The translations under genes were made by a program, and so were the position numbers. From contig OZ242168.1 of NCBI GenBank assembly GCA_965205275.1, positions 1,463,276-1,527,275 of the forward strand: a stretch of 64,000 bases of DNA. Direction: 5' to 3'. Below the pieces are notes generated by a model. The model searched no databases and was not told where the DNA came from. It was given only the letters and a program-made list of their open reading frames with translations. Of the stretch, positions 1 through 21,653 are shown piece after piece. Source of the DNA: Gammaproteobacteria bacterium (lineage in GTDB: Bacteria > Pseudomonadota > Gammaproteobacteria > UBA4575). Numbering within the stretch: the first letter of the stretch is position 1; each line of letters starts with the position of its first letter.

Positions 1-104
1 AGGTGAATACCTGTGATTGGCAAAAAACATGAGCCTTGGCGGATGGTCGAAATGACCATCCGCCAGACACAGAGAGATTAATTCGCTAAGGAATTCTTAC
101 TGAC

Positions 105-293
105 TTAGTGGCAAGGAAAAGCCTGGGAATGGCGAATATCATGGGCCGCATTGTGCACCGCAGCCGAATTCGCAAAACCCACACCAAACAGGATCACGGC
201 CCCCAACAAAAAAGCAGCGGCAATCTGCAAAGGCCGCCATGTCGTTGTCTTCGAAATCGTTGCATCACGCACGATTGCTGTCTGATTTTGCAT
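105..293 (-). CDS. cbtB: CbtB-like small membrane protein (cobalt transporter subunit B), paralog of 12183..12380
   Basis: 62 aa with one hydrophobic helix. The C-terminal His-rich tail VHNAAHDIRHSQAFPCH is nearly identical to the tail of ORF 12183..12380 (VHNAAHDLRHGLAFPCH), which directly precedes a CbtA-like gene. This is the last gene of the minus-strand scn/ABC cluster; any partner cbtA would lie beyond the window start. Confidence 0.55.
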   Translation of the reverse strand: MQNQTAIVRDATISKTTTWRPLQIAAAFLLGAVILFGVGFANSAAVHNAAHDIRHSQAFPCH

Positions 294-350
294 AGTTATA
301 TCTCCTCCGATTAATTAAAACTTCTAATACGCTGTAAATTCATCCGGTAC

Positions 351-1205
351 TCATCCTGAGTGGTGCCAGCTGTAACGCCGAATCAGCATCGCGCAGGAAC
401 TGTCAAGGATGTAGCCCATCACCCCAATGGTAAGTACCATTGCAGTGAGATGGTCATAGGAAAGCGTCTCCCTGGCATCCGCAATGGAATAGCCCAGTCC
501 GGAAGTCACCCCCAGAAATTCTGCCGGTACCAGCACGATCCATCCGACACCCAAAGCGAGTCGAACGCCGGTCAGAATATCGAACATGATCGCCGGCAGG
601 ATAATCTGCGTCACCATATGCCAGGGCTTGGCGCCAAGGTTGCGGGCAACCTTGAACCAGGCCGGGTCCACTTTGGCCAGGCCTGCGGCCGTTGCAAACA
701 CCACCGGCCAGACCGCGGCAATCGAGATGAGAAATACAATCGCTCCGTTCCATGTGGCAAACACAATCACCGCAATGGGCTCCCAGGAGAGTGGGCTGAT
801 CATCCGTACCAACTGAAACGGTGAGTTGCTCAACTCGCGAAAGAGCTTGCTACGGCCAAGCAGGATACCGATGGGCACACCGACGATAATCGCAATGAAA
901 AGCCCGGCGCCCAGACGGTAACCACTGGTCGTGACGGCCGCTTGGATCTTGCCCTGTGCAAACAGGTGTGGAAACGCTTGAAACGTCGGGATCGGCCCGA
1001 AGTCTTTAAAGTTTGTCGTATCGGGGTTGATCTCAATGAGATACCCCCCAAACCACCAAAGCACGAACAGGATCGCAAGACCGGCGCACCAGTTGAACAG
1101 ACTCTTGCCCATCGACTTTACGATGGCTGTGTTCTGTTGCGCAGTCCTTATAGGTGGTGCCGCAGCATCTGCACCTATATCGACCAGTTTATCTCCATTG
1201 CTCAA
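351..1205 (-). CDS. ABC transporter permease, NitT/TauT (nitrate/sulfonate/cyanate/bicarbonate) family
   Basis: 284 aa multi-pass membrane protein with NitT/TauT-type permease architecture. It overlaps the stop of the upstream binding-protein gene by 4 bp. Confidence 0.8.
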   Translation of the reverse strand: MSNGDKLVDIGADAAAPPIRTAQQNTAIVKSMGKSLFNWCAGLAILFVLWWFGGYLIEINPDTTNFKDFGPIPTFQAFPHLFAQGKIQAAVTTSGYRLGAGLFIAIIVGVPIGILLGRSKLFRELSNSPFQLVRMISPLSWEPIAVIVFATWNGAIVFLISIAAVWPVVFATAAGLAKVDPAWFKVARNLGAKPWHMVTQIILPAIMFDILTGVRLALGVGWIVLVPAEFLGVTSGLGYSIADARETLSYDHLTAMVLTIGVMGYILDSSCAMLIRRYSWHHSG

Positions 1206-2491
1206 AGTTCGAACACCTCCGTACGGATATATGGATCGCCTTCTGTCGGTACGCTTGCGTCATTCCTCCACTTGGGATTGGCTTCCAGCGCCGCTTTTAC
1301 GTAGTCGTAATTGACAAGGTCATCGGCCACGTGCTCAGGGGTCAGGGTGTCAAGGAATCTCGCATCCCCCGTGACAACCGTTTCTTTCAGGTCGCTGACA
1401 ACGAGTTCTGTCGCAGACCGGTAGGGCCAGGCCTGGAAGTCAATACGGTTCTGGTTCCACTCCGGATGCTTGATCGCCAGCGGATTCTTGTAGTAGGCCG
1501 GGTCGTAGAACATCATGGCCCGTTTCACAACCTCTTTCGGGACCGGCAGGTAGCCCTTGCCGTCACGCGAAAGCACTTCTGCCATCTCCTCCCGGTTCTC
1601 GGCGAGATGAATCTGCGCTCGGACCACAGCGTTATGCACCCCTTGTGCCCAGGCGGCACGATCGGGATCCATGGCGTCTTCTTCATGCATCACCACCACG
1701 CAGCATGGGTGTCCTTTCCAGGCATCCCCTGTAAAGCGCAGCACCTTTCCACCGGCCTTGAGTTCGCCCAGCGCGTTAAACGGTTCGGCTACACAATAGC
1801 CGTCAATCGTTCCTGCTGCGAGCGCAGGCGGCATGGAAGGCGGCGCCAGAACGAGGTAGTTACACTCATCCGGTGCCAGTTTTGCAGACTGCGGCTTGAT
1901 TACCGGTTTGATGCCGGCGGCCTTCATGATCCTTTGCGAGACAATGTTGTGGATCGAGTACCAGTACGGTACGGCAAACTGCTTGCCGCCGAAGTCCTTG
2001 GGTTCATTGATGCCACTCTTCTTGCCGACCAGTACCGCCGAACCGTTGGTATGGTCCCAGGCCGTGACCTTGATGGGATACTTGTTGTTGTAGCGCATCC
2101 ACACCGGAATCGGAATCAGCATGTGTGTCAGGTTGAACCGATGCGCTGCGAAGGCCTCCACCAGTGGCGACCAGCCACGAATAAGTGTCGGCTTCACGGA
2201 ATCGATGCCTTCATCCTTGAAGTACCCCTGGTCATGCGCGATCAGCAGGGCCGCCGCATCGGTGATGGGGATATAGCCGATCTTGATCACCGGATCCCAT
2301 TTTCTCTTGGCCAAGGCAGGCATCGGCAAGGCACTTGCTCCGCCGAGGGCAGCAAGTCCCCCTACCTGGAGCAATTCACGCCGGTTGATACCGGTCCCCA
2401 GTACCCCCTTGAACAGCGGGTCATATTCTATGGCAAGCTTGGGATCATCCTGCTGTATCCCGTCGCCATGTTTCTCGTAGATTTTCTTCAT
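1202..2491 (-). CDS. Periplasmic substrate-binding protein, NrtA/CmpA/CynA-like (NitT/TauT family) with twin-arginine signal
   Basis: 429 aa. The N-terminus has the Tat motif RRELLQVGGLAALGGASALPMPALA. Size and position between ATPase and permease are typical of nitrate/cyanate/bicarbonate-type binding proteins. Confidence 0.7.
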   Translation of the reverse strand: MKKIYEKHGDGIQQDDPKLAIEYDPLFKGVLGTGINRRELLQVGGLAALGGASALPMPALAKRKWDPVIKIGYIPITDAAALLIAHDQGYFKDEGIDSVKPTLIRGWSPLVEAFAAHRFNLTHMLIPIPVWMRYNNKYPIKVTAWDHTNGSAVLVGKKSGINEPKDFGGKQFAVPYWYSIHNIVSQRIMKAAGIKPVIKPQSAKLAPDECNYLVLAPPSMPPALAAGTIDGYCVAEPFNALGELKAGGKVLRFTGDAWKGHPCCVVVMHEEDAMDPDRAAWAQGVHNAVVRAQIHLAENREEMAEVLSRDGKGYLPVPKEVVKRAMMFYDPAYYKNPLAIKHPEWNQNRIDFQAWPYRSATELVVSDLKETVVTGDARFLDTLTPEHVADDLVNYDYVKAALEANPKWRNDASVPTEGDPYIRTEVFEL

Positions 2492-2557
2492 GTCGGAATT
2501 CCTCTCATCGTTACTCTCATGGTTAATAGGATCTGAAGTGCACTTTCAGACATTATT

Positions 2558-3391
2558 TCAACTGCCGACCAGTTCGGCATTCGATGCAGCATCACTGTCT
2601 ATTTCCGTATCGGGACTGTCGTCGTCCGACACGCCTGCCGCATCGTGGAAAATTTGCATCAGGCTGGTACGCATCGCCTGAACCTTAGGATCCTGTCTTT
2701 CACGCGGATCGTCAAGGTCCACCTTGAAGTCATGTACAATCTTGCCCGGTGACCCGGCCATCACCAGGGCACGATCGGCCATGATGACCGCTTCGTCAAT
2801 GTCGTGGGTGACCATGACCAGATTGAAACCCAGCTGCTTCGAAATGGCCCGGACATCTTTTTGCAGGGTGGCGCGGGTAAAGGCGTCCAGCGCCGAAAAA
2901 GGTTCATCCAGAAGCAACAGATCGGGCTCCATCACCAGAGAACGCGCAAGCGCGACGCGCTGCTGCTGTCCACCCGAAAGGTCTTGTGTATTGTTCTTTG
3001 CAAATTCGTCAAGATGCACCAGATTGACCACCTCGGTAACCCGTTCCTTGATTTTATGGCGAGGCCAGTGGGCAAAACGCAAACCGGTACCGACATTTTG
3101 CTCAACCGTCATCCAGGGAAAGAGATGCGGCGCCTGGAACATCATGACCCATCGCGACGAGGGTTCCGTAACATCTTTTTCATTGAGACGGACAATGCCG
3201 CTCGTTTTATCCAGCAAACCGGCCAGGATATGCAGAAGGGTCGATTTGCCACATCCGGACCGCCCGATAATAACCAGCGCTTCCCTGGATTGGGCCTCGA
3301 TATTGACGTTCTCAAAAGTAACGGGACTCTTCGCCGTATAACGGTGCGTAAGATCCTCGATCCTGATGTGTACGCCTGTACGTTCTTCCAT
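2558..3391 (-). CDS. ABC transporter ATP-binding protein (NitT/TauT family)
   Basis: Walker A GRSGCGKSTL, ABC signature LSGGQQQRVALARSL and Walker B LLLLDEPFSALD are all present. Confidence 0.9.
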   Translation of the reverse strand: MEERTGVHIRIEDLTHRYTAKSPVTFENVNIEAQSREALVIIGRSGCGKSTLLHILAGLLDKTSGIVRLNEKDVTEPSSRWVMMFQAPHLFPWMTVEQNVGTGLRFAHWPRHKIKERVTEVVNLVHLDEFAKNNTQDLSGGQQQRVALARSLVMEPDLLLLDEPFSALDAFTRATLQKDVRAISKQLGFNLVMVTHDIDEAVIMADRALVMAGSPGKIVHDFKVDLDDPRERQDPKVQAMRTSLMQIFHDAAGVSDDDSPDTEIDSDAASNAELVGS

Positions 3392-3528
3392 ATGTGTTCC
3401 CTGCTTCTGTGCCGGTCTTTACGTACTGTAAATCGACGTTTCATTCGCTTTACATACCCTTGCAGGCACTAAAATCCAAGCTAAAACCGAGCCCGTTTCA
3501 TTTGGGTTCAACTCCTCATTTCATGCTG

Positions 3529-3891
3529 TCATTCCGCGATAATCTTGTCTGACCACTCCACGTCCTCGACAAAAGTGTCAGGGTTGCCAGGCTGTGCACC
3601 GGCTTTCGCCATATCCTCTTCACTCACCCCTCGAGCCCTTGAGCACGCGCCACAGCATTCTATCCGGACCCCGTTGCCGATCGCCTCGTCCCATTGTTCG
3701 GCCACGGATGGCCAGCCAAGGGGCACCATGTTTTCACGCACGACGGGCCGCGCCAGACACACGGCTTCTCCAAGCAGGAAAATCCGAACCTCATGGCCTG
3801 CACTGGCCAGCGCGTTCGAATGTCCAAACACCATGGCCGCCCGTGTCGGGTCGTCGCTTCCCCATGAAGACTTCATGAATATATTTGCCAT
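3529..3891 (-). CDS. DsrE/DsrF-like (TusD/YchN fold) sulfur-relay family protein
   Basis: 120 aa. The N-terminal segment fits the DsrE/YchN pattern (FMKSSWGSDDPTRAAMVFGHSNALASAGHEVRIFLLGEAV). It has the conserved Cys region IECCGACSRARGV and a C-terminal ...DKIIAE. Confidence 0.5.
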   Translation of the reverse strand: MANIFMKSSWGSDDPTRAAMVFGHSNALASAGHEVRIFLLGEAVCLARPVVRENMVPLGWPSVAEQWDEAIGNGVRIECCGACSRARGVSEEDMAKAGAQPGNPDTFVEDVEWSDKIIAE

Positions 3892-3974
3892 AAACTTAAT
3901 TATTCCTTACTTTTACGTTTTTCTGTCACACTTTTTCATCAACAATACGCTGACTCCGGGAAGCATACACTCCG

Positions 3975-4382
3975 TCAGACGCGATTGAGGCGTTCGTCGA
4001 CATACTTCATGCGAAGCGCCAGTTCATCTTCATCAATCAGGCCGCGCCGGATCATCGAATGGGCAAGGGCCAGGAGCTGGCGCTCCGGATACGGAACATC
4101 CTGGTACAGCGTCTCGGAGAGCTCATCTTCCTCATTGCGGCGTTCCAGCACAGGAAGCGCACAGTTTTCAGCGGAAAGCGCCTCACAGGTCGAGTCCAGG
4201 TTAAGCTTCCATGGGGGATCGGGGTTTTCCACCCCGTATTGCCTGGCCAGGTCCTCCCATGCTCTTCCTTGCCTGCGAATCTTCTCGAGCAGTGAAATCG
4301 AAGAAAATTCCGATTGCGGGTCGGTCAAACCGGCTTCGGAAGCTTTTTTCTCCGGGGCAGCCATCGCGTTCCTAGTGACCAT
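3975..4382 (-). CDS. Nitrile hydratase / thiocyanate hydrolase accessory (activator, NhlE/P15K-like) protein
   Basis: 135 aa acidic protein immediately downstream of the gamma (NHase-alpha-like) subunit, overlapping it by 11 bp. Size and position match the self-subunit-swapping activators of Co-type NHase/SCNase. The homology is inferred, not confirmed. Confidence 0.4.
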   Translation of the reverse strand: MVTRNAMAAPEKKASEAGLTDPQSEFSSISLLEKIRRQGRAWEDLARQYGVENPDPPWKLNLDSTCEALSAENCALPVLERRNEEDELSETLYQDVPYPERQLLALAHSMIRRGLIDEDELALRMKYVDERLNRV

Positions 4383-5064
4383 GAACCGGGTTGGCCGCCT
4401 TGTGTACGGGCCGCTTGTCGTCTGCCTTGCGGTCCGGGTGCGGCAGGGCTACGCCCAGCATACAGTCACGCGTTACAATTTCGGCGAGCTGATCCTCGCT
4501 CCAGCCTTCCGTGCCTTCGGGGCGCATCGGCATGACCATGAAACGGCACTTCTGGTTCGAGTCCTCAACCCGGACTTCTGTATCGGCAGGCACCTGCAGA
4601 CCAAACTCTGCCAGCACCTGGCGTGGCCATCGGACCAGTCGGCGTCGATAATTCGGAGTCCGGTACCACTCGGGGGAATGACCCAGAATGGGCCTGGGGT
4701 AACACGAGCACAGCGTACACACCACCACATGATGCACGGACGGGGTGTTTTCAAGGACGCGTAAATCGCAATAATCACTTGGCGTTCCGAATCCTGTCGG
4801 GTTCAGCCAGTCGACCCCCACTTCCTTGCTGGCCGCGAAGCCATCCTCCAGGGCACGTTTCTTGAATTCGGGATCGAGCCAGGACTTGGCAACCAGTCGT
4901 GCCGCCGGCAGCGGTCCTATGCTATGTGCAAATTCCGCAAAGCGTCGATGATCTTCGGCACTGAAAAGGCCTTTCTCAATCGCCAGCTCACGAACAGCCA
5001 CTTCCAGAACTTCGAAGTCGCTGACCTCATCCACCATGGGTGCGGCTTTATGTTTCTCTGCCAT
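4372..5064 (-). CDS. scnC: Thiocyanate hydrolase gamma subunit (Co-type nitrile hydratase alpha-like), metal-binding VCTLCSC motif
   Basis: 230 aa carrying the motif HVVVCTLCSCYPRPILG (the Co-type C-T-L-C-S-C claw), then SPEWYRTPNYRRRLVRWPRQVLAEFG. It follows two separate beta-half genes, as in SCNase. Confidence 0.75.
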   Translation of the reverse strand: MAEKHKAAPMVDEVSDFEVLEVAVRELAIEKGLFSAEDHRRFAEFAHSIGPLPAARLVAKSWLDPEFKKRALEDGFAASKEVGVDWLNPTGFGTPSDYCDLRVLENTPSVHHVVVCTLCSCYPRPILGHSPEWYRTPNYRRRLVRWPRQVLAEFGLQVPADTEVRVEDSNQKCRFMVMPMRPEGTEGWSEDQLAEIVTRDCMLGVALPHPDRKADDKRPVHKAANPVHGH

Positions 5065-5110
5065 AATTCTTTCCTCTCTATTCGGTTCGCTTTATCCGTT
5101 CCGGTCCGGG

Positions 5111-5485
5111 TTACGCCGACTCCAGCCAGCGTTCGGAAAACTCTGTCTGCAAGGTATCGTTCGCATAGGCATCCGGATATCCGGACCAGAGATCCTTCTG
5201 CCTGAAACGCACAATGTAGAACCACTCGGGATCGTCAACGTTATCCCAGGCCTCGTCCTCAGGGGCGGGGCTTTCATGCGTCACCGCGGCCACGACACCC
5301 TCCGCACCCCGTGTATACACCTGACACCGGGTGTAGAAGATATCCGGCAAATCCTGGATGCGCACGCGATCACCGACGTTGAATTTGGGCGGGCCGGCTT
5401 CGCCTTGGAAACATTGGGGGTCGCCTTTCCCCGTAGCTTTTTCGGCGTGATGACTTCTACTCATGGCGCTTCTTGACCTCATCAA
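5111..5485 (-). CDS. scnA: Thiocyanate hydrolase alpha subunit (corresponds to the C-terminal half of nitrile hydratase beta)
   Basis: 124 aa with an NHase-beta C-terminal-like segment (VGDRVRIQDL...YTRGAEGVVAAV...PEWFYIVRF). It lies between the beta and gamma genes. The alternative identity is a split NHase beta. Confidence 0.65.
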   Translation of the reverse strand: MMRSRSAMSRSHHAEKATGKGDPQCFQGEAGPPKFNVGDRVRIQDLPDIFYTRCQVYTRGAEGVVAAVTHESPAPEDEAWDNVDDPEWFYIVRFRQKDLWSGYPDAYANDTLQTEFSERWLESA

Positions 5486-5930
5486 TCTTGTTCATCAGTT
5501 CGGTGAGCGTAACGTGTTGCTTGTCTACCATGATGCGTGCAGCAGAAAGCAGCCAGCGCCCATAGTAGGGCAAGCCCAGGTACTGGGTCTGGCCCAGGTC
5601 AACGTTCTGCCGGCGACGTCTTTCCTCGGCATTCCAAACCCCGCGCCACGCCAGGCATTCACAGGTTACGTAGGTATTCAATTCCCACTGCTCTTCCTCT
5701 TTTTCATGCCATTGAATGGAGACGTCGGGTTCGCCACCGACATCATGCGAAGTGCGCATATAGGCCCTGAAATGAGCGTTATCAACCTCAGTGGGAAGTG
5801 GTGCATGCTGCGGTTGATGCAAAGCCGGTTGCAGTTGACCGACAATGTCAATATGCCGCATCACCTTCTGTCTCGTATCGGATGACATAGCGTTGATCTC
5901 CTCCTTACTTCCTACATATATGGATGTCAA
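5457..5930 (-). CDS. scnB: Thiocyanate hydrolase beta subunit (corresponds to the N-terminal half of nitrile hydratase beta)
   Basis: 157 aa, the size reported for ScnB, with NHase-beta N-terminal-like motifs (HDVGGEPDV...WELNTYVTCECLAWRGVWNAEERRR...LGLPYYGRWLL). It is the first gene of the minus-strand operon and overlaps scnA by 29 bp in another frame. Confidence 0.65.
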   Translation of the reverse strand: MTSIYVGSKEEINAMSSDTRQKVMRHIDIVGQLQPALHQPQHAPLPTEVDNAHFRAYMRTSHDVGGEPDVSIQWHEKEEEQWELNTYVTCECLAWRGVWNAEERRRRQNVDLGQTQYLGLPYYGRWLLSAARIMVDKQHVTLTELMNKIDEVKKRHE

Positions 5931-6081
5931 ACAAGTTGCCTTGTAAGCCAGATAATTCGGGTATTTTAGAATTTACTTATTTACTTATTTTATAGCATAT
6001 TCACTTTAGATAATGACAAGTCTAAAGGAGTTGTGTTATTAATCCAAGACTTTATATTTATCAAACCTATAAGAGTTGACT

Positions 6082-7014
6082 ATGGACCGAAGGGACATTT
6101 TCCCGCGTTCCCTCCAGTACCTGATCGCCATCGCAGAGTATGGCAGCTATACGCGCGCGGCTGAAGCCTTGCATGTCTCACAGCCCACTTTGTCGCAACA
6201 AATCAAACAACTGGAAAGTTACCTGCAATCCCCCTTGCTGGACCGGTCCGGACGACATGTGCAGCTCACCGACGCCGGCAAGATATATGTGCGCCATGCC
6301 CGTCGCGCCTGGGGGGAATTGAGCACCGGTACGCGGGCCATCCACGATGTACAGAACCTGAGTCGCGGTTCATTGCGCCTGGGATGGACACCGATTACCG
6401 ACTATCTGACCTGCTCCCTGCTGGCCTGCTACAACAGCCAATATCCCGGTATTACCCTGAGTACGCTGGATATGCCCCAGGACGACATTGAATCCGCCAT
6501 ATCCGAAGCCCGCATTGATATCGGCATTACCTTCAGCAAACCCACCGACCCCGAGGATGTATCGGGCAATACCGAAACGTTCACGCTGTTTGAAGAAGCC
6601 CTGCACCTGGCCGTCGGCAACGCACACCCGCGTGCCAAACGGCATAAGCGGATCAGTGTCCAGGATTTTGGCAAGGAATCCCTGGTACAGCTCAATACGG
6701 ACTTCGCGCTGCGCCGTCACATCGACCGCTATTGTCATGATCACGGCATCGAACCCTATAATGCAATCGAAACCAATTCTCTTACCGTGATCATAGAAAT
6801 GGTGGAACACGGCCCACTGGCCACCGTGCTGCCCAGTACCATTATCAATGCGCAGAGCGGGCTTCATCCAATCGAGGTATTACCGGAACTTCCCCATCAC
6901 ACCGTCAGCCTGGTCTGGCATAAAGGCGGTTACAAAAGTCCGGCATGCCAGGCCTTTCTGGAGATGGCATCGGACTGGGCCGCGCGCATGTGCCAGAAAA
7001 AACAGGCACCGTGA
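6082..7014 (+). CDS. LysR-family transcriptional regulator (CynR-like position, divergent from the scn operon, upstream of cynS)
   Basis: N-terminal HTH (LQYLIAIAEYGSYTRAAEALHVSQPTLSQQIKQLE) followed by a LysR substrate-binding domain. The ATG at 6082 is preferred over the TTG at 6076. Confidence 0.85.
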   Translation: MDRRDIFPRSLQYLIAIAEYGSYTRAAEALHVSQPTLSQQIKQLESYLQSPLLDRSGRHVQLTDAGKIYVRHARRAWGELSTGTRAIHDVQNLSRGSLRLGWTPITDYLTCSLLACYNSQYPGITLSTLDMPQDDIESAISEARIDIGITFSKPTDPEDVSGNTETFTLFEEALHLAVGNAHPRAKRHKRISVQDFGKESLVQLNTDFALRRHIDRYCHDHGIEPYNAIETNSLTVIIEMVEHGPLATVLPSTIINAQSGLHPIEVLPELPHHTVSLVWHKGGYKSPACQAFLEMASDWAARMCQKKQAP

Positions 7015-7034
7015 TGTGCCTGACCCGGCCTGCC

Positions 7035-7076
7035 GCATCCAAAAGGATGCGATGGCCGGATGCAGCAGGCTGCATC
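7035..7076 (+). terminator. Two adjacent stem-loops after the LysR stop (gcatcc-aaaa-ggatgc and gatgcag-cagg-ctgcatc)
   Basis: Perfect 6-bp and 7-bp inverted repeats seen directly in the sequence 20-60 nt after the stop at 7012-7014. There is no strong T-run. Confidence 0.35.
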
Positions 7077-7254
7077 GGCTTCATGGGTGACCGATATGGA
7101 TACATTGATGCACAATAATGGTGCAACCCTGGCATTCCACCGGTCCAGCCCCTGACTACCGGATTCACAAGTGTATGAAAAACCAGTCGTCAACGGAGTT
7201 GGCCCGGGTTTTGCTTGAGCTTCAGTCCATACAACTTACAGTAAGGGGAATGAA

Positions 7255-7695
7255 GTGACCAAAGAAGAAATGACGGACTGCATCATTGCGTCCAAAAAAG
7301 CAAAAGGATTGACCTGGAAAGCTATTGCCAGCAAGCTGGGCATGCACGAGACTTGGGTGACTTCCGCATGCCTTGGAATGAACAGCATGCCTGAAAAGGA
7401 AGCCAGTATCTTGTGTGAAGCCCTCGAACTGGACGAAAGCACATGCGCAGCCCTGAAAGAGTATCCCGATAAATCATGGGAGAAGACCATTCCACAGGAC
7501 CCGGTGACCTACCGGCTGTACGAAATTGTCGGCGTATACGGCAATACGATCAAGGAACTCATCCATGAAAAGTTCGGCGACGGGATCATGAGCGCGATCG
7601 ATTTTTCAATGAACATCGAGAAGGAAGAGAACCCGAAAGGAGACCGGGTTGTAATCACACTGAACGGTAAATTCCTGAAATATACCGCATGGTAA
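7255..7695 (+). CDS. cynS: Cyanase (cyanate hydratase/lyase)
   Basis: 146 aa. The C-terminal half closely matches the CynS catalytic domain (YRLYEIVGVYGNTIKELIHEKFGDGIMSAIDFSMNIEKEENPKGDRVVITLNGKFL). A GTG start with a GGGGAA ribosome-binding site precedes it. Confidence 0.9.
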   Translation: MTKEEMTDCIIASKKAKGLTWKAIASKLGMHETWVTSACLGMNSMPEKEASILCEALELDESTCAALKEYPDKSWEKTIPQDPVTYRLYEIVGVYGNTIKELIHEKFGDGIMSAIDFSMNIEKEENPKGDRVVITLNGKFLKYTAW

Positions 7696-8642: not shown

Positions 8643-9659
8643 TCATGTGCGGTCCAGACCGGGCGGGTCCAGGGCATATTCGAATGAATCATAGTACAAC
8701 GCATCGCCCGCCAGCCCATGTTGCGGAAAAGAGGTCCGGATGGCGGCAATCATCTCCGGCGGACCGCTGGCATACACCTGCACCTGCGACAGGTCCGGGT
8801 GGTCGGCCAGCACCGCTTCGTGCACCGGCCCGCACCGGCCTTCCCAGTCCGGATCCGGCCTGGATAATACGGGCGTGAAGCCAACGCCCAGTTCCCGTTC
8901 CCAGACGGCTATCTGCTCATGGCGGTACAGGTCCCGCCGTGCGCGTACGCCCCAGTAAAACTTCACAGGTCTTCGCACCCCGCGCACGCACAGGTCATCG
9001 AGCATGGCCGCAATCGGGGCAAAACCCGTACCGCCCCCCACAAGGATCGCCGGGCGCGGATCCTCCCGCAGGAAAAAAGTCCCCAGAGGGCCCATTACAT
9101 GCAGCAGGTCCTGTTCCTGGATCGCACTGAGTTCATGCTCACTGAACCGGCCGCCGGGAACCCGGCGTACGTGCAACTCGATCGATTCGGTGTGGTCAGG
9201 CGTACTTGCAATCGAGTAACTGCGACGACGGTTGTCCCACAACAAAAGATCGACATGTTGTCCGGCAAGAAAATGCAGGGTGCCGCGCCCTTTCTCCAGG
9301 CCGAGCGTGATCGCGGTGACGTCGTGGCTGAGCGGTTCCAGGCGCTGCACCCGGCAGGCCAGGGTACTCACCTCAAACCCGGCCATGGCTTCAATTTCCC
9401 GGGCCTCGATGACCAGATCGGAACGCGCGAGCGCCTGGCACAGCAGGATGGCACCGCGCGCACAGGTGCCCAGTACCTCTTCCGGTGCCGCACCCGGGGA
9501 AATTTCGCCGGATACCAGACGGGCGCGACATATCCCGCAGTTCCCGCTGCGACAGCTGTACGGGAACACAAGCCCCTCGCGAAGCGCAGCCGCCAACACC
9601 GTCTCTCCCTCCCGGCTCGTAACCTCGCGCCCGCTGGGCTGAAAACGAATACGTGTCAT
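8643..9659 (-). CDS. 2Fe-2S ferredoxin / FAD-NAD(P)H oxidoreductase fusion (FNR-like reductase)
   Basis: N-terminal plant-type ferredoxin cysteines (CRSGNCGICRARL...C), the FAD motif RRSYSIAS and an NAD(P)-binding GGGTGFAP. The start was moved to the internal ATG at 9659 (MTRIRFQP...); the ORF table extends it to 9728. Confidence 0.75.
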   Translation of the reverse strand: MTRIRFQPSGREVTSREGETVLAAALREGLVFPYSCRSGNCGICRARLVSGEISPGAAPEEVLGTCARGAILLCQALARSDLVIEAREIEAMAGFEVSTLACRVQRLEPLSHDVTAITLGLEKGRGTLHFLAGQHVDLLLWDNRRRSYSIASTPDHTESIELHVRRVPGGRFSEHELSAIQEQDLLHVMGPLGTFFLREDPRPAILVGGGTGFAPIAAMLDDLCVRGVRRPVKFYWGVRARRDLYRHEQIAVWERELGVGFTPVLSRPDPDWEGRCGPVHEAVLADHPDLSQVQVYASGPPEMIAAIRTSFPQHGLAGDALYYDSFEYALDPPGLDRT

Positions 9660-9828
9660 AAGTAACTGCCTATTGTCTACAATCTTGCAGGCACATGGAA
9701 GCCGGTCCCGGGCCTGACGCTCCCGCACTCACAGGGTGTACGTGATCTCGATCAGGCCGTTTTACCGTTCTGTACCATTTGGTATATACTGTACTGATCG
9801 GTAAAACCTACAACAAGGAGCTGCAGCC

Positions 9829-10296
9829 ATGTCCGAACGACCCCCATTCCCCCCTTTTACCCGTGAGGGTGCCATACAAAAAGTCCAGATGGCCGAAAAT
9901 GCATGGAACTCGTGCAACCCGGAGAAAATCGCGCTGGCGTACAGCGAAGACAGCCGCTGGCGTAACCGGGCCGAGTTCTTCGAGGGCCGTGAAGCGATCG
10001 TCACCTTTCTTACGCGCAAGTGGGCACGTGAACTGGATTATCACCTGATCAAGGAACTCTGGGCATTTCATGACGACCGCATCGCCGTGCGTTTTCAATA
10101 CGAATGGCATGACGATTCCGGCAACTGGTTTCGTGCACACGGCAACGAAAACTGGGAATTTGACGAACGGGGTTTGATGCGCCGGCGCGAGGCCAGTATC
10201 AACGACGTTCCGATTGAGGAATCCGAGCGGAAATTCCTGTGGGAACAGGGACCGCGTCCAGGTGATTATCCCGGACTGACCGAACTGGGCCTTTAG
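9829..10296 (+). CDS. DUF1348 family protein (NTF2-like fold)
   Basis: 155 aa with the characteristic DUF1348 run [12 protein letters not shown]...[39 protein letters not shown]...[27 protein letters not shown]. Confidence 0.7.
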
Positions 10297-10299
10297 TTC

Positions 10300-10872
10300 A
10301 TGTCCCGGAAAATCGCGGAACGCCGGGACGCGATTCCGGCACTCGGGGAAATTTTCAGGGAGCACGGCTTCTCAGGCAGCTCGCTCACAGAAATTACACA
10401 ACGAACCGGCCTCGGCAAGGGCAGCCTGTATCATTTCTTTCCCGATGGCAAAAAAGAGATGGCCGAGGCCGTGCTGGATGATGTGACGGCCTGGTTCGAG
10501 ACCCATGTGTTTTCAGCTTTGCGCGACAGTAAAGACCCTGGGTCCGGCATCCGGGATATGTTTGAGGCCGTGAACCGTTATTTCAATTCAGGTAACCGGA
10601 TCTGTCTGGTCGGCGCTTTTGCGCTGGACGATACCCGCAACCAGTTCGAGGCCCGGATCAGCGCCTATTTCAATGCCTGGATCCGGGCCCTCACCGTGGC
10701 TCTCAAACGCTCTGGCTTCGGCAAGAAAAATGCAAAAAAGACGGCGGAAGATATTGTCATCGGCATCCAGGGGGCCTTGGTGCTGGCGCGGTCACAACAG
10801 GACCCGCAGGTGTTCACCCGGGCCTTGAAGCGACTGCAACAACGCATTACAGCAGGCCCTTTCAAATCATGA
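10300..10872 (+). CDS. TetR/AcrR-family transcriptional regulator
   Basis: N-terminal TetR HTH (GFSGSSLTEITQRTGLGKGSLYHFFPDGKKEMAEAVL). It starts 4 nt after the DUF1348 stop. Confidence 0.85.
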   Translation: MSRKIAERRDAIPALGEIFREHGFSGSSLTEITQRTGLGKGSLYHFFPDGKKEMAEAVLDDVTAWFETHVFSALRDSKDPGSGIRDMFEAVNRYFNSGNRICLVGAFALDDTRNQFEARISAYFNAWIRALTVALKRSGFGKKNAKKTAEDIVIGIQGALVLARSQQDPQVFTRALKRLQQRITAGPFKS

Positions 10873-12392: not shown

Positions 12393-13076
12393 GTGAAAGC
12401 CTTTAACAGGATATTGTTGACTGCCTTGCTGGCGGGCAGCATTGCGGGGTTGATTCTCGGAGGCATCCAGCAGTTCACGGTAGTCCCCAAGATCCTTGAA
12501 GCGGAGACCTATGAGACTGCCGGTGATGACGGAGAAGCCCATGGTGGCGAGACCTGGGCGCCACAAGAAGGTACGGAGAGAACCCTCTGGACGATAGTGA
12601 ACAGCATGCTGGTGGGCATAGGATTCGGCCTGCTGCTGACCGCCTGTTATGCATTGCGCAGGAAGGTTACCTGGCAACACGGCATTCTGTGGGGACTGGC
12701 GGGTTTTGCCGCATTCCATCTGGCGCCCGCACTGGGATTGCCGCCGGAACTTCCAGGAGATGCCGCAGCGGGTCTGGATCAACGGCAGGTATGGTGGCTG
12801 CTGACCGTGGCGGCGACGGCTGCCGGTCTTTGGATCATAGCCTTCCAGTCGAATGTCTACCTGAAGCTGTTCGGGGTAGCCTTGCTCGCATTGCCTCATA
12901 TATTCGGGGCGCCCCAGCCCGCGAGGCACGAAGGTCTGGCACCCGCAGAACTGAGAGAGGCCTTTGTTTTTACATCGCTGGTGACGAATGCCGTTTTCTG
13001 GGTCGCGCTCGGTGTCCTTTGTGCGCTGTTTTATAAATGGTTTGGAGATAAAGACGGAAAGCCCTGGGCTGACTGA
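12393..13076 (+). CDS. cbtA: Cobalt transporter subunit CbtA
   Basis: 227 aa with about 5 TM helices. It has an acidic/His-containing periplasmic loop (ETAGDDGEAHGGETWAPQEG) and HIFGAP/H-rich segments typical of CbtA. It is in an operon with cbtB. Confidence 0.65.
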   Translation: MKAFNRILLTALLAGSIAGLILGGIQQFTVVPKILEAETYETAGDDGEAHGGETWAPQEGTERTLWTIVNSMLVGIGFGLLLTACYALRRKVTWQHGILWGLAGFAAFHLAPALGLPPELPGDAAAGLDQRQVWWLLTVAATAAGLWIIAFQSNVYLKLFGVALLALPHIFGAPQPARHEGLAPAELREAFVFTSLVTNAVFWVALGVLCALFYKWFGDKDGKPWAD

Positions 13077-15676: not shown

Positions 15677-16288
15677 TCAGTCTAGCATCCCTTCAGAACG
15701 AATGAACCGGATGATTTCCTCCAGCCCTTCCTGCTGTTTCAGATTGGTAAATACAAAGGGCCGCGCACCGCGCATTTTCCTTGCGTCGCGCTCCATGACT
15801 TCAAGCGATGCCCCTACCATGGGGGCCAGATCCGTTTTATTGATCACCAGTAAATCGGACTTTGTGATACCCGGGCCCCCTTTGCGTGGAATCTTGTCCC
15901 CGGCGGCGACGTCGATGACGTAAATCGTCAGATCCGAAAGTTCCGGGCTGAACGTGGCACTCAGATTATCACCTCCACTTTCCACCAGTATGAAATCCAG
16001 TTCAGGAAACTCGTCACAAAGATCCTGTACGGCCGCCAGATTGATCGAGGCATCTTCACGAATGGCCGTATGCGGACATCCACCTGTCTCAACACCCTTG
16101 ATGCGGTTTTCAGGCAGTGCTCCATGTTTGATCAGAAATTCCGCATCTTCACGCGTGTAGATGTCATTCGTGACGACGCCTATCTCATACTCGCCACGCA
16201 TGGCCGTACACAATGCATTCAGCAATGCCGTTTTACCGGAGCCGACAGGACCGCCCACCCCAACCCTTAACACTTGTTTGGATGTCAT
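15677..16288 (-). CDS. ureG: Urease accessory protein UreG (GTPase)
   Basis: P-loop [10 protein letters not shown], UreG length 203 aa, located 3' of ureF. Confidence 0.95.
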
Positions 16289-16294
16289 GATGGG

Positions 16295-16981
16295 TTACGA
16301 CCTGAATAACCGTGAATACTGTGATTCGTGGTTGGCACTGGCAATACCCAGTCCCACCGCTGTGCTGCCCAGATCATCGTCCTGCAGCTGCAATCCCGTT
16401 TTGACCCGGGCCGGGATTTCATCAATCAGGGATGAGAGCATGCGCTGGCCCGCAGTCTGGCCCAGTGGAATCAGTTTAATGGCGGCATTCACCTGATTCT
16501 CGCACCAGGCCCACAGGTACCCCGTGCAGGCATCCGCTTTGCCTACCTGCCATTGTGTGGCGGCCAGTGAAAAGGCAGTGGCATAGGTCACATAGGGCGC
16601 GCCCATAATTTGTCCGGCTTGCCGGATCCCCAGGTCGGCCAGCAGTTTTGACAAGGCCTTTCCCAGATGCCGGTCTTCGCTACGCAATTCCCTGGACTCA
16701 CGGCAGGCAAGCAGGTACCGGCTCCAGTACGCCACCTTATCGGCCGAGCCGGCCTGCCAGGCATCAAACAGCCGTACCAGTAGCGGCACATCCACACAGG
16801 TTTGCGCGTTTCGCAACAACCCTGCAATCCAGTCCCGGGCACTGTCTTCATCTTTTACCCAGTCCTGATCACAGGCAAATTCCAGACCTTGCGAATAGGC
16901 AAATGCACCGATCGGCAACGACGGGCTGGTCAGTCGCATGAGATTCAGCATGGCCGTGCTGCGGGATGATTCAACGGACAT
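16295..16981 (-). CDS. ureF: Urease accessory protein UreF
   Basis: 228 aa with the UreF N-terminus LMRLTSPSLPIGAFAYSQGLE. Confidence 0.85.
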   Translation of the reverse strand: MSVESSRSTAMLNLMRLTSPSLPIGAFAYSQGLEFACDQDWVKDEDSARDWIAGLLRNAQTCVDVPLLVRLFDAWQAGSADKVAYWSRYLLACRESRELRSEDRHLGKALSKLLADLGIRQAGQIMGAPYVTYATAFSLAATQWQVGKADACTGYLWAWCENQVNAAIKLIPLGQTAGQRMLSSLIDEIPARVKTGLQLQDDDLGSTAVGLGIASANHESQYSRLFRS

Positions 16982-16983
16982 GA

Positions 16984-17451
16984 TCAGTGAGCATGCCGGT
17001 CGGCATGCGCATGGGAATGAGCCTGCTGAAGGTAGGCACCCGACTCGGGTTCAAAAGAACGCATTTCATGTGAAATGGAGAGCCCCAGGTGGCTGACCAT
17101 TTGATCCAGCACATGATCTTTCTGGTACACCAGATAGCTCTCCCCGATCTGCAAGGGCATGTGCCGGTTGCCAAGATGATAACTGGCCCGGGCCAGCAGC
17201 AACCGGTCCTCACTGCTTGCCACCGAAACCGCTTCCGCTACGGCAATGACCCGGACAATCACTTCACCGTCCTCACTTTGCAGACAGTCACCCCCTCGTA
17301 ACACCAGGCCCCGGGGTAACATCACCCCTACTTCCTCACCGCTGTCCGACCGGGTTTTGAAGCGTGCCTTTTGCCGCACCTCATACGCCAGGGTCAAGGT
17401 ATGGCTGGGATGCGATACAGGGCCTGTTATGCGCGCAGTGAGCACCAGCAT
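16984..17451 (-). CDS. ureE: Urease accessory protein UreE (nickel metallochaperone) with His-rich C-terminus
   Basis: 155 aa with the LGNRH motif and a C-terminal HSHAHADRHAH tail. Confidence 0.85.
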   Translation of the reverse strand: MLVLTARITGPVSHPSHTLTLAYEVRQKARFKTRSDSGEEVGVMLPRGLVLRGGDCLQSEDGEVIVRVIAVAEAVSVASSEDRLLLARASYHLGNRHMPLQIGESYLVYQKDHVLDQMVSHLGLSISHEMRSFEPESGAYLQQAHSHAHADRHAH

Positions 17452-17456
17452 CGGGA

Positions 17457-19160
17457 TCAGAACAAAAAGTATTTCTGTGCCATGGGAACGGTGGTGGCCG
17501 GTTCACAGGTCAGTAACTCGCCGTCGGCATGCACTTCATAGGTCTGCGGGTTGACCTCAATACGGGGTTGATACGTGTTCAGATGCAGGTCTTTTTTCCG
17601 GATCCCGCGTGTATTGCTGACCGCAACGACCGTTTTATCCAGATGCAATTGATCCTGTATACCCGCATCCAGTGCGGCTTTTGAAACAAAGGTCAGTGAG
17701 GTGGATGCGTTGGCTTTGCTTTGGGCACCAAACATATACCGGTAGTGTACAGGTTGTGGCGTAGGGATTGAGGCATTGGGATCCCCCATCGGGGCCGCAA
17801 CAATAAACCCTCCCTTGATGATCAGTGAAGGTTTCACGCCGAAAAACGGCGGCTTCCATAACACCAGGTCGGCCAGTTTGCCGACTTCAACCGATCCGAC
17901 TTCATGTGCGATGCCATGCGTAATGGCCGGGTTGATGGTGTACTTGGCAACGTAACGCCGTATCCTGAAGTTGTCGTTGCGATCACTGTCTGGTTCCAGT
18001 GCACCGCGTTGAACCTTCATTTTATGAGCCGTTTGCCAGGTCCGGGCAATGACTTCCCCGACACGCCCCATGGCCTGTGAATCCGATGCAATCATACTGA
18101 ACGCACCCAGGTCATGCAGGATGTCTTCGGCGGCAATGGTTTCCCGGCGAATGCGTGACTCGGCAAAGGCAACGTCTTCAGGAATTTTCGGGTCCAGGTG
18201 ATGACATACCATCAGCATGTCCAGATGTTCGTCAATGGTGTTCACCGTAAAAGGCCGGGTTGGATTGGTACTGGACGGCAACACGTTGGCCAGGCCGCAT
18301 ACACGAATGATATCCGGTGCATGCCCACCCCCTGCGCCTTCCGTATGATAGGTGTGTATCGTACGGTCCTTGAATGCGGCAATGGTGTCCTCAACGAAAC
18401 CGGATTCATTCAACGTATCGGTGTGAATCGCCACCTGCACGTCGTGTTGCTCAGCGACTCCCAGACAATTGTCGATGGCGGCAGGCGTTGTGCCCCAATC
18501 TTCATGCAGCTTCAGCCCCATTGCCCCGGCTTCAACCTGTTCATTCAAGGCCTCCGGCAGGCTTGCATTGCCCTTGCCCAGGAAACCCAGATTCATGGGC
18601 AGACTGTCTGCGGCTTCCAGCATACGGTGAATATTCCACGGACCCGGGGTGCAGGTGGTCGCATTGGTGCCGGTCGCAGGGCCTGTGCCTCCCCCCAGCA
18701 GGGTGGTCACCCCGGACATCAGGGCATCTTCGATCTGTTGCGGACAGATAAAGTGTATGTGTGCGTCGATCCCCCCCGCAGTCAGTATTTGTCCTTCCCC
18801 GGCAATGGCTTCGGTACCCGGACCGATCAGGATATCGACACCGGGCTGCACATCAGGATTGCCTGCTTTGCCGATGCCTGCAATCCGTCCGTCCTTGATC
18901 CCCACATCGGCTTTGGCAATTCCCCAGTAATCCACAATGAGTGCATTGGTGATGACCGTATCCACGGCTTCCCGGCAGCTCGCCTGGCTTTGCCCCATGC
19001 CATCCCGTATGACCTTGCCGCCACCGAACTTTACTTCTTCCCCGTAGATGGCAAAGTCGCTCTCAACTTCCACACGCAATTCCGTATCGGCAAGTCGCAG
19101 ACGGTCCCCGACGGTGGGGCCATACATTTCGGCATACGCCTGTCTTGAGATTTTTGCCAT
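17457..19160 (-). CDS. ureC: Urease alpha subunit
   Basis: 567 aa with the amidohydrolase active-site motifs GGIDAHIH and MVCHHLD. Confidence 0.95.
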
Positions 19161-19171
19161 GTCCGTGCAGC

Positions 19172-19519
19172 TCAGTCCCGGGGCTCGTCCAGAGGGCCCA
19201 TCACTTTTGCGTTAAATCCGTAAACGGCCCTTTTCCCGTCCAGGTCCACCAGCGTGACCGTGCGTGTTTGCCCGGGTTCAAAACGCACCGCGGTCCCTGC
19301 GGGGATATCCAGACGCTTTCCCCTGGACCGCCCGCGGTCAAATTCCAGCGCGGAGTTGGTTTCATAAAAATGATAATGTGAACCCACCTGAACCGGGCGA
19401 TCGCCGGTATTGGCCACGGTAACTGTGCAGGGGACCCGCCCGGCATTAATCTCCAGTTCCCCCTCGGCTACCATCAGTTCACCCGGTATCGGACCGGTAT
19501 CTTTCCTGTTTCCCATCAT
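19172..19519 (-). CDS. ureB: Urease beta subunit
   Basis: 115 aa containing [18 protein letters not shown]. Its start overlaps the ureA stop (ATGA). Confidence 0.85.
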
Positions 19520-19821
19520 CAGATAATCGGGTTATGCACGGTCACCAGTTTCGTGCCATCCGGGAAAGTGGCCTCGACCTGCACCTCATGTACCATTTCG
19601 GCAATCCCTTCCATGACCTCTTCCGTGCTCAGCAGGGTACGCCCGTACTCCATGCATTCGGCAACGGTTTTGCCTTCACGCGCCGCCTCCAGTATCGCGG
19701 CTGAAATATAGGCGATCGCTTCAGGATAGTTCAGCCGGAGGCCTTTTGCCTTGCGCCGTTCCGCAAGCAGGCCCGCCGTAAAAATCAAAAGCTTGTCTTT
19801 CTCGCGTGGCAGAAGTTCCAT
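19519..19821 (-). CDS. ureA: Urease gamma subunit
   Basis: 100 aa: [45 protein letters not shown]... Confidence 0.9.
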
Positions 19822-19842
19822 ATGGATTCCCGTATCCTGCTG

Positions 19843-20706
19843 TCAGGTGGCCCAGATTCTGGGCTCGCATGGCTTTTTCCCAAGCGTAACCGGTCGAATC
19901 GCTTTCCAGATCTTAATAAACCAGTCCCGTATCGCCATGGCACTGGTATCCAGACAACGGCACAACAATACGCCACCCGCAACGGTAACGCTGGTACGGC
20001 GGACGTCCTCCAGCATGTCCCGAACCAGGCCCTGTGCTTCTTCCAGTACGCGTACATCCCTGTTGACAACGGTCATCAGGCCCATGACCGGTTGTTTGCG
20101 AAGCCCCCATGCGCCATTCAATACCTCTGCACAGTTTTGCAGGGTGATGCGATCGATCAGCAAGGGTTCCGTTCCCTGCCAGATTTCAAAATGCTGCCTG
20201 AACCGGCCCGTTACAAATTTTTCATCGCATGCCGGGCGGCCAAAACTCACGATCTCCCAGCCGAAAAAACCGGCCTCGCCGGCCAAGTGTACTTTCGTGC
20301 TGGAATGTACGCTTGCGCCATCAAACAATATGGTCTCCTGCGGCAGCCATTCCAGGCAGGCATTGCCCTGGACCGTTAACTCATTGTACTGCGTTGCCAT
20401 GTGACCATTGGAGCGGTAGAACTTGTTTGCGGCAGGGGTCGTGATGAGTGCAGAAGTCGCCGCCTCACACGTCACGACGACACTGAGCGAATCCCCGCCC
20501 ACTACGCCCCCCGGCGGGTGCAGGACATATACATGACAGGTGCCGTCGGATTCCGGGTAAAACGGTCGCTGCACAGTCAGGGGGCCCTCATGACGTTGCC
20601 GGCTTACGACCGTCCTGTCATTTTTCAACGCCAGCCTCAGCTGCAAGCGGGCCTCCCAGCCCGGGGCATGCTCATATCCGGAGCATTTTTGCGCAAGCGC
20701 CGCCAT
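19843..20706 (-). CDS. ureD: Urease accessory protein UreD (UreH)
   Basis: 287 aa with UreD-like core segments. It is the first gene of the ure block. Confidence 0.8.
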   Translation of the reverse strand: MAALAQKCSGYEHAPGWEARLQLRLALKNDRTVVSRQRHEGPLTVQRPFYPESDGTCHVYVLHPPGGVVGGDSLSVVVTCEAATSALITTPAANKFYRSNGHMATQYNELTVQGNACLEWLPQETILFDGASVHSSTKVHLAGEAGFFGWEIVSFGRPACDEKFVTGRFRQHFEIWQGTEPLLIDRITLQNCAEVLNGAWGLRKQPVMGLMTVVNRDVRVLEEAQGLVRDMLEDVRRTSVTVAGGVLLCRCLDTSAMAIRDWFIKIWKAIRPVTLGKKPCEPRIWAT

Positions 20707-20707
20707 T

Positions 20708-20926
20708 CTATGCTTTCAATAGCCTTCGAAAGACCAGGCCGGCAATCCCCAATCCTGCAATCAGGGCGACATACCCCCATGCTCCCCCGACAAGATGCGG
20801 ATGAACATGCACCGGATCTAGAACTCCTGACATCCCTGTACTGCCATGTCCCGTGTGCGAAATCGCTGAACCGGGCAATAAAGCCACCATCAAAAAGATG
20901 GCTGCAAGTAATGATTGGATTCGCAT
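20708..20926 (-). CDS. Mini HupE/UreJ-like protein: signal peptide + His-rich metal-binding segment + single TM (72 aa)
   Basis: MRIQSLLAAIFLMVALLPGSAISHTGHGSTGMSGVLDPVHVHPH... resembles only the mature N-terminus of HupE/UreJ nickel permeases (AHTGHG...G..HP). It ends after one TM helix, 2 nt before ureD, and sits 23 nt after urtE. Confidence 0.45.
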   Translation of the reverse strand: MRIQSLLAAIFLMVALLPGSAISHTGHGSTGMSGVLDPVHVHPHLVGGAWGYVALIAGLGIAGLVFRRLLKA

Positions 20927-20949
20927 GATGTTGTGTCCCCCAGGTATTT

Positions 20950-21642
20950 TTACACTTTTAAATATCGATCAATGAGGTCGCCATCCAGTTCATTCATTTT
21001 TCCTGTGGCGACCATGGCGCCTTTCTCCATGATACTGAAATTGCTTGCCACTTTTTTGGCAAAAGGCAATTTTTGCTCCACCAGCAAAACGGTCAGGCCC
21101 CATTCCTGGTTGAGCCGGTTGATGATATCGCCGATTTCAGAAACAATATTGGGCTGAATGCCTTCTGTAGGTTCATCAAGGATCAGTAACTCAGGCTCAA
21201 TCGCCAGTGCCCGGCCTAACGCCAGCTGCTGCTGCTGTCCGCCCGACAGATCACCTCCTCTACGATTCAGCATTTCTTTCAGGACCGGGAATAATTCAAA
21301 AATCATGGAGGGCAGGGTTTTCTTTTTACCGGCACGGGCCGTCAGTCCTGTATGCAGATTTTCGGCTACCGTAAGTTGCGAAAATATCTCTCTCCCCTGT
21401 GGCACATAGCCAATCCCGTGTCGTGCACGCACTTCAGCCGCTTTTGCCGAAAATTCGATGCCCTTAAACCGGATTTCACCGTTCTTTATTTTCTCCAGGC
21501 CCATCACGCATTTGAGCAAGGTGGTCTTGCCCACACCGTTTCGACCCATTAGGCACATGCAGGCCCCTTTCTCAATTTCAAGGTTAACGCCCCAGAGAGT
21601 ATGACTTTCCCCGTAGTAATGATCAAGGTTATGGATCTTCAT
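20950..21642 (-). CDS. urtE: Urea ABC transporter ATP-binding protein UrtE
   Basis: Walker A GRNGVGKTTL and ABC signature LSGGQQQQLALGRAL. It is LivF-like and the last gene of the urt operon. Confidence 0.85.
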   Translation of the reverse strand: MKIHNLDHYYGESHTLWGVNLEIEKGACMCLMGRNGVGKTTLLKCVMGLEKIKNGEIRFKGIEFSAKAAEVRARHGIGYVPQGREIFSQLTVAENLHTGLTARAGKKKTLPSMIFELFPVLKEMLNRRGGDLSGGQQQQLALGRALAIEPELLILDEPTEGIQPNIVSEIGDIINRLNQEWGLTVLLVEQKLPFAKKVASNFSIMEKGAMVATGKMNELDGDLIDRYLKV

Positions 21643-21653
21643 GGTCCTTGCTG

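Follow-up and report, generated by a model that had tools for sequence, protein, structure and literature searches.

Thiocyanate hydrolase (SCNase, EC 3.5.5.8) converts thiocyanate according to SCN− + 2 H2O → COS + NH3 + OH− (COS, carbonyl sulfide) at a Co(III) centre with Cys-SO2H and Cys-SOH ligands. In the betaproteobacterium Thiobacillus thioparus THI115 the enzyme (PDB entries 2DD4, 2DD5, 2DXB, 2DXC and 2ZZD; R136W variant 3VYG) is encoded by three genes in the order β-α-γ, with a small β-like gene immediately downstream of scnC. Published gene neighbourhoods of T. thioparus DSM 505 and Thioalkalivibrio thiocyanodenitrificans ARhD1 comprise scnABC, a hypothetical protein and then an ATP-binding cassette (ABC) transporter of the NitT/TauT type (Berben et al. 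2017, PMC5328954); a DsrE/F-like protein, a cyanase and a cobalt transporter are found nearby (PMC5328954). For Thiobacillus genomes from bioreactors, too, the scn gene set has been described as a conserved operon (PMC5458468). The locus described here lies in a stretch of 64,000 nucleotides (contig OZ242168.1, positions 1,463,276 to 1,527,275 of the forward strand) of the gammaproteobacterial assembly GCA_965205275.1. This whole stretch is referred to as the window, and positions are counted from its first nucleotide. The locus is very probably an intact SCNase operon of the T. thioparus type, composed of scnBAC, a gene for a P15K-like activator, a DsrE-like gene, the genes of a NitT/TauT-type importer and cbtB, with divergent cynR and cyanase genes. 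The enzyme belongs to a standard, structurally and biochemically characterised family and the locus is of an already known kind; its layout is essentially that published for T. thioparus DSM 505 and T. thiocyanodenitrificans (PMC5328954).

Cobalt-type nitrile hydratases (Co-NHases, EC 4.2.1.84), such as those of Pseudonocardia thermophila (1IRE) and Bacillus smithii (1V29), resemble the enzyme of the window in the superfamily fold, the VCTLCSC cobalt site and its presumed post-translationally oxidised cysteines, and their activators (NhlE, P14K) are likewise accessory proteins with weak similarity to the β subunit. They differ from it in having a single-chain β subunit of about 220–230 amino acids (aa), the motif CSCYPWP and a nitrile as substrate, and their equivalog models were not reached by the proteins of the window.

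Identity of the enzyme

A first-pass annotation of the window had proposed a three-subunit SCNase encoded by scnBAC in the order β-α-γ, together with its activator. The four genes concerned are the following:

5457..5888, minus strand: scnB, SCNase β subunit (corresponding to the N-terminal half of nitrile hydratase (NHase) β); match to 2dd4_B, Pfam NHase_beta_N 9e-18
5111..5464, minus strand: scnA, SCNase α subunit (corresponding to the C-terminal half of NHase β); match to 2dd4_A, Pfam NHase_beta_C 1.3e-22
4372..5064, minus strand: scnC, SCNase γ subunit (corresponding to NHase α), the catalytic cobalt-binding subunit; 2dd4_C, TIGR03887
3975..4364, minus strand: P15K-like SCNase activator candidate (129 aa, 14.8 kDa); position and β-family homology

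The three subunits were compared with the chains of the PDB, and T. thioparus SCNase was the best match for each of them, far ahead of the NHases: γ matched 2dd4_C at 2.6e-116 (best NHase 3e-63), β matched 2dd4_B at 9.5e-66 (best NHase 0.013; a further phmmer comparison with 2dd4_B, aligning residues 1–141 on 1–141, gave 6.4e-66), and α matched 2dd4_A at 1.6e-48 (best NHase 6e-8). With E-values of 1e-48 to 1e-116, chance similarity is ruled out. Over the aligned parts, identity to the T. thioparus subunits amounts to 74% for γ, 70% for β and 62% for α. The proposed assignment is borne out by these comparisons: three separately encoded subunits are present in the order scnB-scnA-scnC, and each is matched best by its own SCNase counterpart.

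Family models gave the same result. Pfam assigned the first three open reading frames (ORFs) to NHase_beta_N, NHase_beta_C and NHase_alpha, in that order, in agreement with the earlier reading of the 157- and 124-aa ORFs as the N- and C-terminal halves of NHase β. With 397.6 bits, the γ subunit exceeded the cutoff (291.45) of TIGR03887, the NCBI equivalog model named 'thiocyanate hydrolase subunit gamma'; it failed the NHase-α equivalog TIGR01323 (211.1 bits, cutoff 249.85), and both β and α failed the NHase-β equivalog TIGR03888 (31.7 and 62 bits, cutoff 152.2). The locus thus falls outside the Co-NHases, the equivalog models having failed and the β chain being split instead of forming one chain of about 220–230 aa.

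Active site

Residue conservation was determined from an alignment of about 80 homologues from related genomes with the T. thioparus sequences (n=82 for the γ set). The VCTLCSC motif that had been pointed out in the 230-aa protein occupies γ residues 115–121 (window 4722–4702). Its metal ligands C116, C119, S120 and C121 correspond to C128, C131, S132 and C133 of T. thioparus, the CTLCSC claw being identical there, and are invariant in the 82 sequences.

The check on SCNase-specific residues of the substrate pocket, which the first-pass annotation had named, likewise came out in favour of SCNase: Arg is present at the position where Co-NHase has Trp. This residue, γ R124, corresponds to T. thioparus Arg136 and is 100% conserved in the 82 sequences. 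Accordingly, the window shares CSCYPRP with 2DD4_C, and the Co-NHases 1V29 and 7QOP have CSCYPWP at this place; 3VYG, the engineered R136W mutant of T. thioparus SCNase, reads CSCYPWP as well. A literature search on Arg136 of SCNase returned no paper.

Residues R90, R91 and R92 of β and R46 of α are invariant in the approximately 80 homologues, and R90/R91 of β and R55 of α are the conserved counterparts in T. thioparus SCNase. The β arginines and α R46 align with the equivalents of NHase β Arg52 and Arg157, α R46 taking the position of T. thioparus R55 and of Arg157. From structural knowledge of NHase and SCNase, such second-shell arginines of β and α hydrogen-bond the oxidised cysteine ligands in the solved enzyme. 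Judged by these residues, the non-corrin cobalt site and the SCNase-type pocket are intact.

Gene boundaries and protein sizes

Four minus-strand ORFs of 157, 124, 230 and 135 aa had been reported for the locus. The ORF list gives them at 5457–5930 (157 aa, TTG start; β), 5111–5485 (124 aa, TTG; α), 4372–5064 (230 aa, ATG; γ) and 3975–4382 (135 aa, ATG; fourth gene), so that the coordinates stand, but three of the lengths (157, 124 and 135 aa) are those of maximal ORFs and not of the probable proteins, which most likely comprise 143, 117, 230 and 129 aa.

The start of scnB is most likely ATG 5888 (143 aa), which is preceded by AAGGAGG 8 nt upstream and at which the alignment with T. thioparus ScnB opens with the same Met. 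For scnA, ATG 5464 is the most likely start (117 aa); it gives an 8-nt overlap with the scnB stop, ATGAGTAG, and 8 nt is the modal β/α overlap (39 of the 77 related loci in which both genes could be delimited). For the fourth gene, the most probable start is ATG 4364, 7 nt past the scnC stop (129 aa). Identical calls of 143, 117, 230 and 129 aa were made by the gene caller on a near-identical public contig, and Shine–Dalgarno-like sequences precede scnB, scnC and the DsrE-like gene. The masses computed for the four proteins are 16.9, 13.4, 26.0 and 14.8 kDa, and the earlier estimate of about 17, 14 and 27 kDa for the subunits therefore still fits.

The length of the 157-aa ORF was rejected as proof of ScnB identity. 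Since the upstream TTG start is unsupported, its agreement with T. thioparus ScnB, which also has 157 aa, is a coincidence. Compared with the T. thioparus enzyme, β of the window (143 versus 157 aa) lacks a C-terminal tail of about 14 residues, and γ falls short by 13 residues, 10 of which are N-terminal, and is without a 2-residue insertion.

The activator candidate

The genes around scnC were surveyed in 81 loci, and a homologue of the fourth gene was found immediately 3' of scnC in 78 of them. The encoded protein is remotely related to the β subunit: Pfam NHase_beta_N was matched marginally (22.1 bits, cutoff 21.5), alignment of its family with the SCNase β family by hhalign gave a probability of 96.6% (E 6e-10, residues 51–126 against β 67–142), and the best PDB match of the family profile was T. 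thioparus SCNase β (2dd4_B, 2.1e-5). An invariant E74-R75-R76 aligns with E89-R90-R91 of β. The counterpart that occupies this position in a Thiobacillus metagenome-assembled genome (MAG; locus L074) has 140 aa and 15.8 kDa, a size that matches the name P15K, and is 58% identical; its internal loop of some 12 residues, CVKPYDQVEPGS, is missing from the protein of the window.

As Kataoka et al. 2006 is summarised in PMC5458468 and PMC3511329, P15K promotes functional expression of SCNase, and NHase activators of the P15K-like kind have been described as β-like subunit-swapping chaperones (PMC3511329). With about 15 kDa, a gene directly downstream of that of the catalytic subunit and weak similarity to β, the 129-aa protein fits a P15K-type activator, position and family suggesting orthology. 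The activator role that the first-pass annotation had given to the 135-aa ORF is supported in this way by position and β homology, the probable size being 129 aa.

Operon, transporter and neighbourhood

Apart from scnBAC and the activator candidate, the locus contains the following genes:

3529..3891, minus strand: DsrE/DsrF-like small protein, 120 aa; Pfam DsrE 8.3e-14
2558..3391, minus strand: ABC transporter ATPase of the NitT/TauT (nitrate/sulfonate/taurine) type; Pfam ABC_tran, sub-cutoff NCBIfam matches to ntrCD and TauB-like models
1202..2491, minus strand: periplasmic substrate-binding protein of the NMT1_2 family, NrtA/CmpA-like; Pfam NMT1_2 1.2e-37
351..1205, minus strand: ABC transporter permease; Pfam BPD_transp_1, NCBIfam ntrB and TauC-like matches
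105..293, minus strand: CbtB-like small cobalt-transporter subunit, end of the operon; PF09489 CbtB on the equivalent gene of the related contig L001
6076..7014, plus strand: LysR regulator of the CynR type, divergent; NCBIfam CynR equivalog 351.8 bits, cutoff 277
7255..7695, plus strand: cyanase CynS; NCBIfam cyanase 207 bits, cutoff 150

Homologues of these genes were counted in the 81 loci as follows: scnB 80, scnA 81, scnC 81, activator-like gene 78, ATPase 75, binding protein 72, permease 70, CynR 68, CynS 44 (within the fetched flank), CbtB 40 and DsrE-like gene 16. CynR homologues lie mostly about 1.8 kb upstream on the opposite strand, and CbtB often lies just downstream of the permease. 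The order of the operon is kept in 70–78 of the 81 loci, which come from Gamma-, Beta- and Alphaproteobacteria and Gemmatimonas; the survey thus shows the breadth of the scnBAC-activator-ABC module and leaves knowledge of the family unchanged.

The binding protein has a signal-like N-terminus that contains RR. Its specifically named relatives in the PDB are NrtA, CmpA and the solute-binding domains of NrtC/CmpC (1e-6 to 1e-15), and this kinship with nitrate- and bicarbonate-binding proteins fits a small linear anion as ligand. The NMT1_2 protein is a candidate for the thiocyanate-binding component.

No more than 16 of the 81 loci (L001–L009, L023, L045, L055, L060 and L068–L070) have a DsrE-like gene that separates the activator gene from that of the ABC ATPase. 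The gene is a clade-specific insertion that possibly encodes a sulfur-handling protein; a PDB sequence search with the protein gave no match. In the distant loci that carry it, identity to the window is mostly 81–90% for the DsrE-like protein (64% in L070) and 88–92% for the binding protein, compared with 60–76% for the scnBAC products. The high identity of the DsrE-like and binding proteins hints at exchange of the transporter module between lineages or at unusually strong constraint.

The DsrE-like gene is placed here between activator and transporter, whereas in the published neighbourhoods (PMC5328954) the transporter precedes it. Other differences are that the window has no tusA or sqr in a following position, that its cobalt system is CbtA/CbtB, and that urease and urea-transporter operons are close. 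A cbtA gene is located at 12393–13076 (plus strand), about 6.5 kb upstream of scnB, and in the related contig L001 CbtB lies beside CbtA. Cobalt uptake genes are thus found on both sides of the cobalt enzyme, an orphan CbtB-like gene closing the scn operon.

A urease cluster extends over approximately 15.7–20.7 kb and comprises the α subunit UreC with the accessory genes UreD, UreE, UreF and UreG; it is followed at about 20.9–26.6 kb by an ABC transporter of the urea type (urease and urea-transporter span 15677–26631, minus strand). An ammonium transporter is encoded at 58855–60120 (minus strand). Together with SCNase and cyanase, these genes make up a nitrogen-scavenging neighbourhood.

Scans of window positions 1–7400 for promoter and terminator consensus sequences gave no excess over shuffled sequence. 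An origin of the locus from a mobile element was considered and rejected; the composition is even, and no integrase or transposase was found among the scanned ORFs.

Proposed function

By analogy with the characterised homologues, SCN− would be taken up by the co-transcribed ABC system with its binding protein of the NrtA/CmpA group and hydrolysed to COS and ammonia at a Co(III) centre carrying Cys-sulfinate and Cys-sulfenate ligands. The 129-aa β-like protein would assist γ in cobalt loading and in the oxidation of its cysteines; since its E-R-R motif, aligned with E89-R90-R91 of β, has been retained, it may act as a β mimic in the manner of the subunit-swapping chaperones of NHase. Cobalt would be supplied by CbtA/CbtB, and an enzyme whose gene lies elsewhere in the genome would turn COS into H2S and CO2. 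The organism is accordingly predicted to be able to release ammonia and reduced sulfur from thiocyanate. The first-pass annotation had suggested use of thiocyanate as a source of nitrogen and sulfur. Since cyanase, urease, the urea ABC transporter and the ammonium transporter share the window, the main role here is most likely to scavenge nitrogen, and the sulfur would be a by-product or an additional electron source.

Several points weigh against this interpretation. The SCNase activity of this organism is predicted from its genes, the putative role of the activator from position and remote homology, and the putative substrate of the ABC transporter from synteny and family membership. The regulator is of the CynR type, which in Escherichia coli responds to cyanate. 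Furthermore, neither a COS hydrolase nor a β-carbonic anhydrase was found among the approximately 45 window ORFs scanned with Pfam, so that the COS step is unaccounted for in the window.

Alternative interpretations

The alternative that survives best is a true SCNase-family enzyme with another physiological substrate, such as cyanate, selenocyanate, an organic thiocyanate or a similar small pseudohalide. The adjacent CynR-type regulator and cyanase speak for it, the regulator and the NrtA-like transporter, whose thiocyanate specificity is putative, could point to cyanate-type metabolism, and the closest relatives come from marine sponge datasets, for which no documented levels of free SCN− were found in the literature consulted. 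However, identity to the characterised enzyme is 62–74%, all first- and second-shell residues that were checked are conserved, and cyanate already has its own enzyme here. In addition, the cynR/cynS/ABC context also surrounds experimentally proven genes of the T. thioparus type (PMC5328954), and the context therefore cannot discriminate between substrates. Another substrate is thus considered improbable, and thiocyanate is retained.

The next possibility is an ordinary two-subunit Co-NHase, converting nitriles into amides, with a β gene broken by a frameshift or a sequencing error, a scenario that had been put forward in the first-pass annotation, for a frameshift, as one that would overturn the SCNase assignment. 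All three proteins do belong to the NHase superfamily by Pfam (NHase_alpha, NHase_beta_N and NHase_beta_C), and the claw VCTLCSC is of the Co-NHase type. The split was counted in the 77 delimitable loci: each of the 77 has one ORF for β and another for α, which differ in reading frame in 75 loci and usually overlap by 8–23 nt. A frameshift of a single β gene is excluded because the split is kept in all of these loci; the separation into two genes, coupled in the window by the 8-nt overlap, is ancestral. Moreover, every subunit is matched far better by SCNase than by any NHase, and β carries an SCNase-specific N-terminal extension of about 45 residues that is aligned from residue 1. An ordinary Co-NHase is ruled out by the equivalog cutoffs (211 against 249.85 bits for α, and 31.7 and 62 against 152.2 bits for the β halves) and by the Arg that follows the claw in place of Trp; the chance that this explanation is correct is judged to be negligible.

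Equally slight is the probability of a decaying, non-functional remnant in a small symbiont-like genome (about 2.1 Mb): the size of the source contig (2.1 Mb) and of related MAG chromosomes (1.7–2.0 Mb) suggests some genome streamlining, but the eleven genes are all intact, with plausible start codons and coupled overlaps, the catalytic residues are invariant, and the operon is kept at 94–96% γ identity in at least nine related MAGs, which indicates purifying selection.

Distribution, host lineage and annotation

A scan of one genome per species yielded at least 576 genomes with a relative of γ; synteny and taxonomy were taken from the best 80. Those of the best 80 that are named belong to Gamma-, Beta- and Alphaproteobacteria and Gemmatimonas, with one Bryobacteraceae MAG, and include Ca. 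Thiodiazotropha, Sulfuritalea, Thiogranum and Thioalkalivibrio. Protein databases hold thousands of γ relatives, many of them already named thiocyanate hydrolase γ, and proteins with 96% identity carry the NCBI name 'thiocyanate hydrolase subunit gamma'. The proteins of the window themselves are deposited in NCBI/ENA on a contig of 2,106,183 bp. SCNase and cyanase have also been noted, and found transcribed, in the symbionts of lucinid clams (PMC11171427).

The host is a gammaproteobacterial MAG lineage, in contrast to the betaproteobacterium T. thioparus. Among the matches listed, the closest genomes are Gammaproteobacteria MAGs with 94–96% γ identity and chromosomes of 1.7–2.0 Mb. By their bin names (APA_bin, SB0662_bin), these relatives can be traced to metagenome series of the sponges Aplysina aerophoba and Ircinia ramosa (PMC11706023, PMC7883664), from which we infer a sponge habitat for the window itself. 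It may tentatively be suggested, although with considerable doubt, that a sponge symbiont harvests thiocyanate derived from the host or its community as a source of nitrogen and possibly of sulfur or electrons, the DsrE-like gene having been gained in a streamlined lineage of about 2 Mb. No description of such an SCNase niche in sponge symbionts was found in the searchable literature.

The locus adds one more well-supported SCNase operon, in a small-genome gammaproteobacterial lineage, and is useful for metabolic reconstruction. Only two aspects are mildly new: the DsrE-like insertion, which is specific to a clade, and the host lineage, which is probably associated with sponges. Public annotation names γ correctly and treats the relatives of β and of the accessory protein poorly, most of them being unnamed, 'hypothetical protein' or 'nitrile hydratase subunit beta'. 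The only practical gap is accordingly that β, α and the activator are often 'hypothetical' or mislabelled as 'nitrile hydratase subunit beta'.

Other features of the window

Between the cyanase gene and cbtA, positions 8643–10872 encode a Fer2/FAD/NAD oxidoreductase (minus strand), a DUF1348/SnoaL-like protein and a TetR regulator. A stand-alone HNH endonuclease (46395–46985, minus strand) lies amid housekeeping genes, and no other mobile-element genes were present in the scanned ORFs. Rfam at gathering thresholds gave only a tRNA and an antisense urease match near the operon and cbtAB. The latter, to RF02514 (5' ureB small RNA (sRNA) of Helicobacter; 99 bits, 18725–19011, plus strand), lies antisense within the urease α gene and most likely reflects conserved urease coding sequence rather than an sRNA gene.

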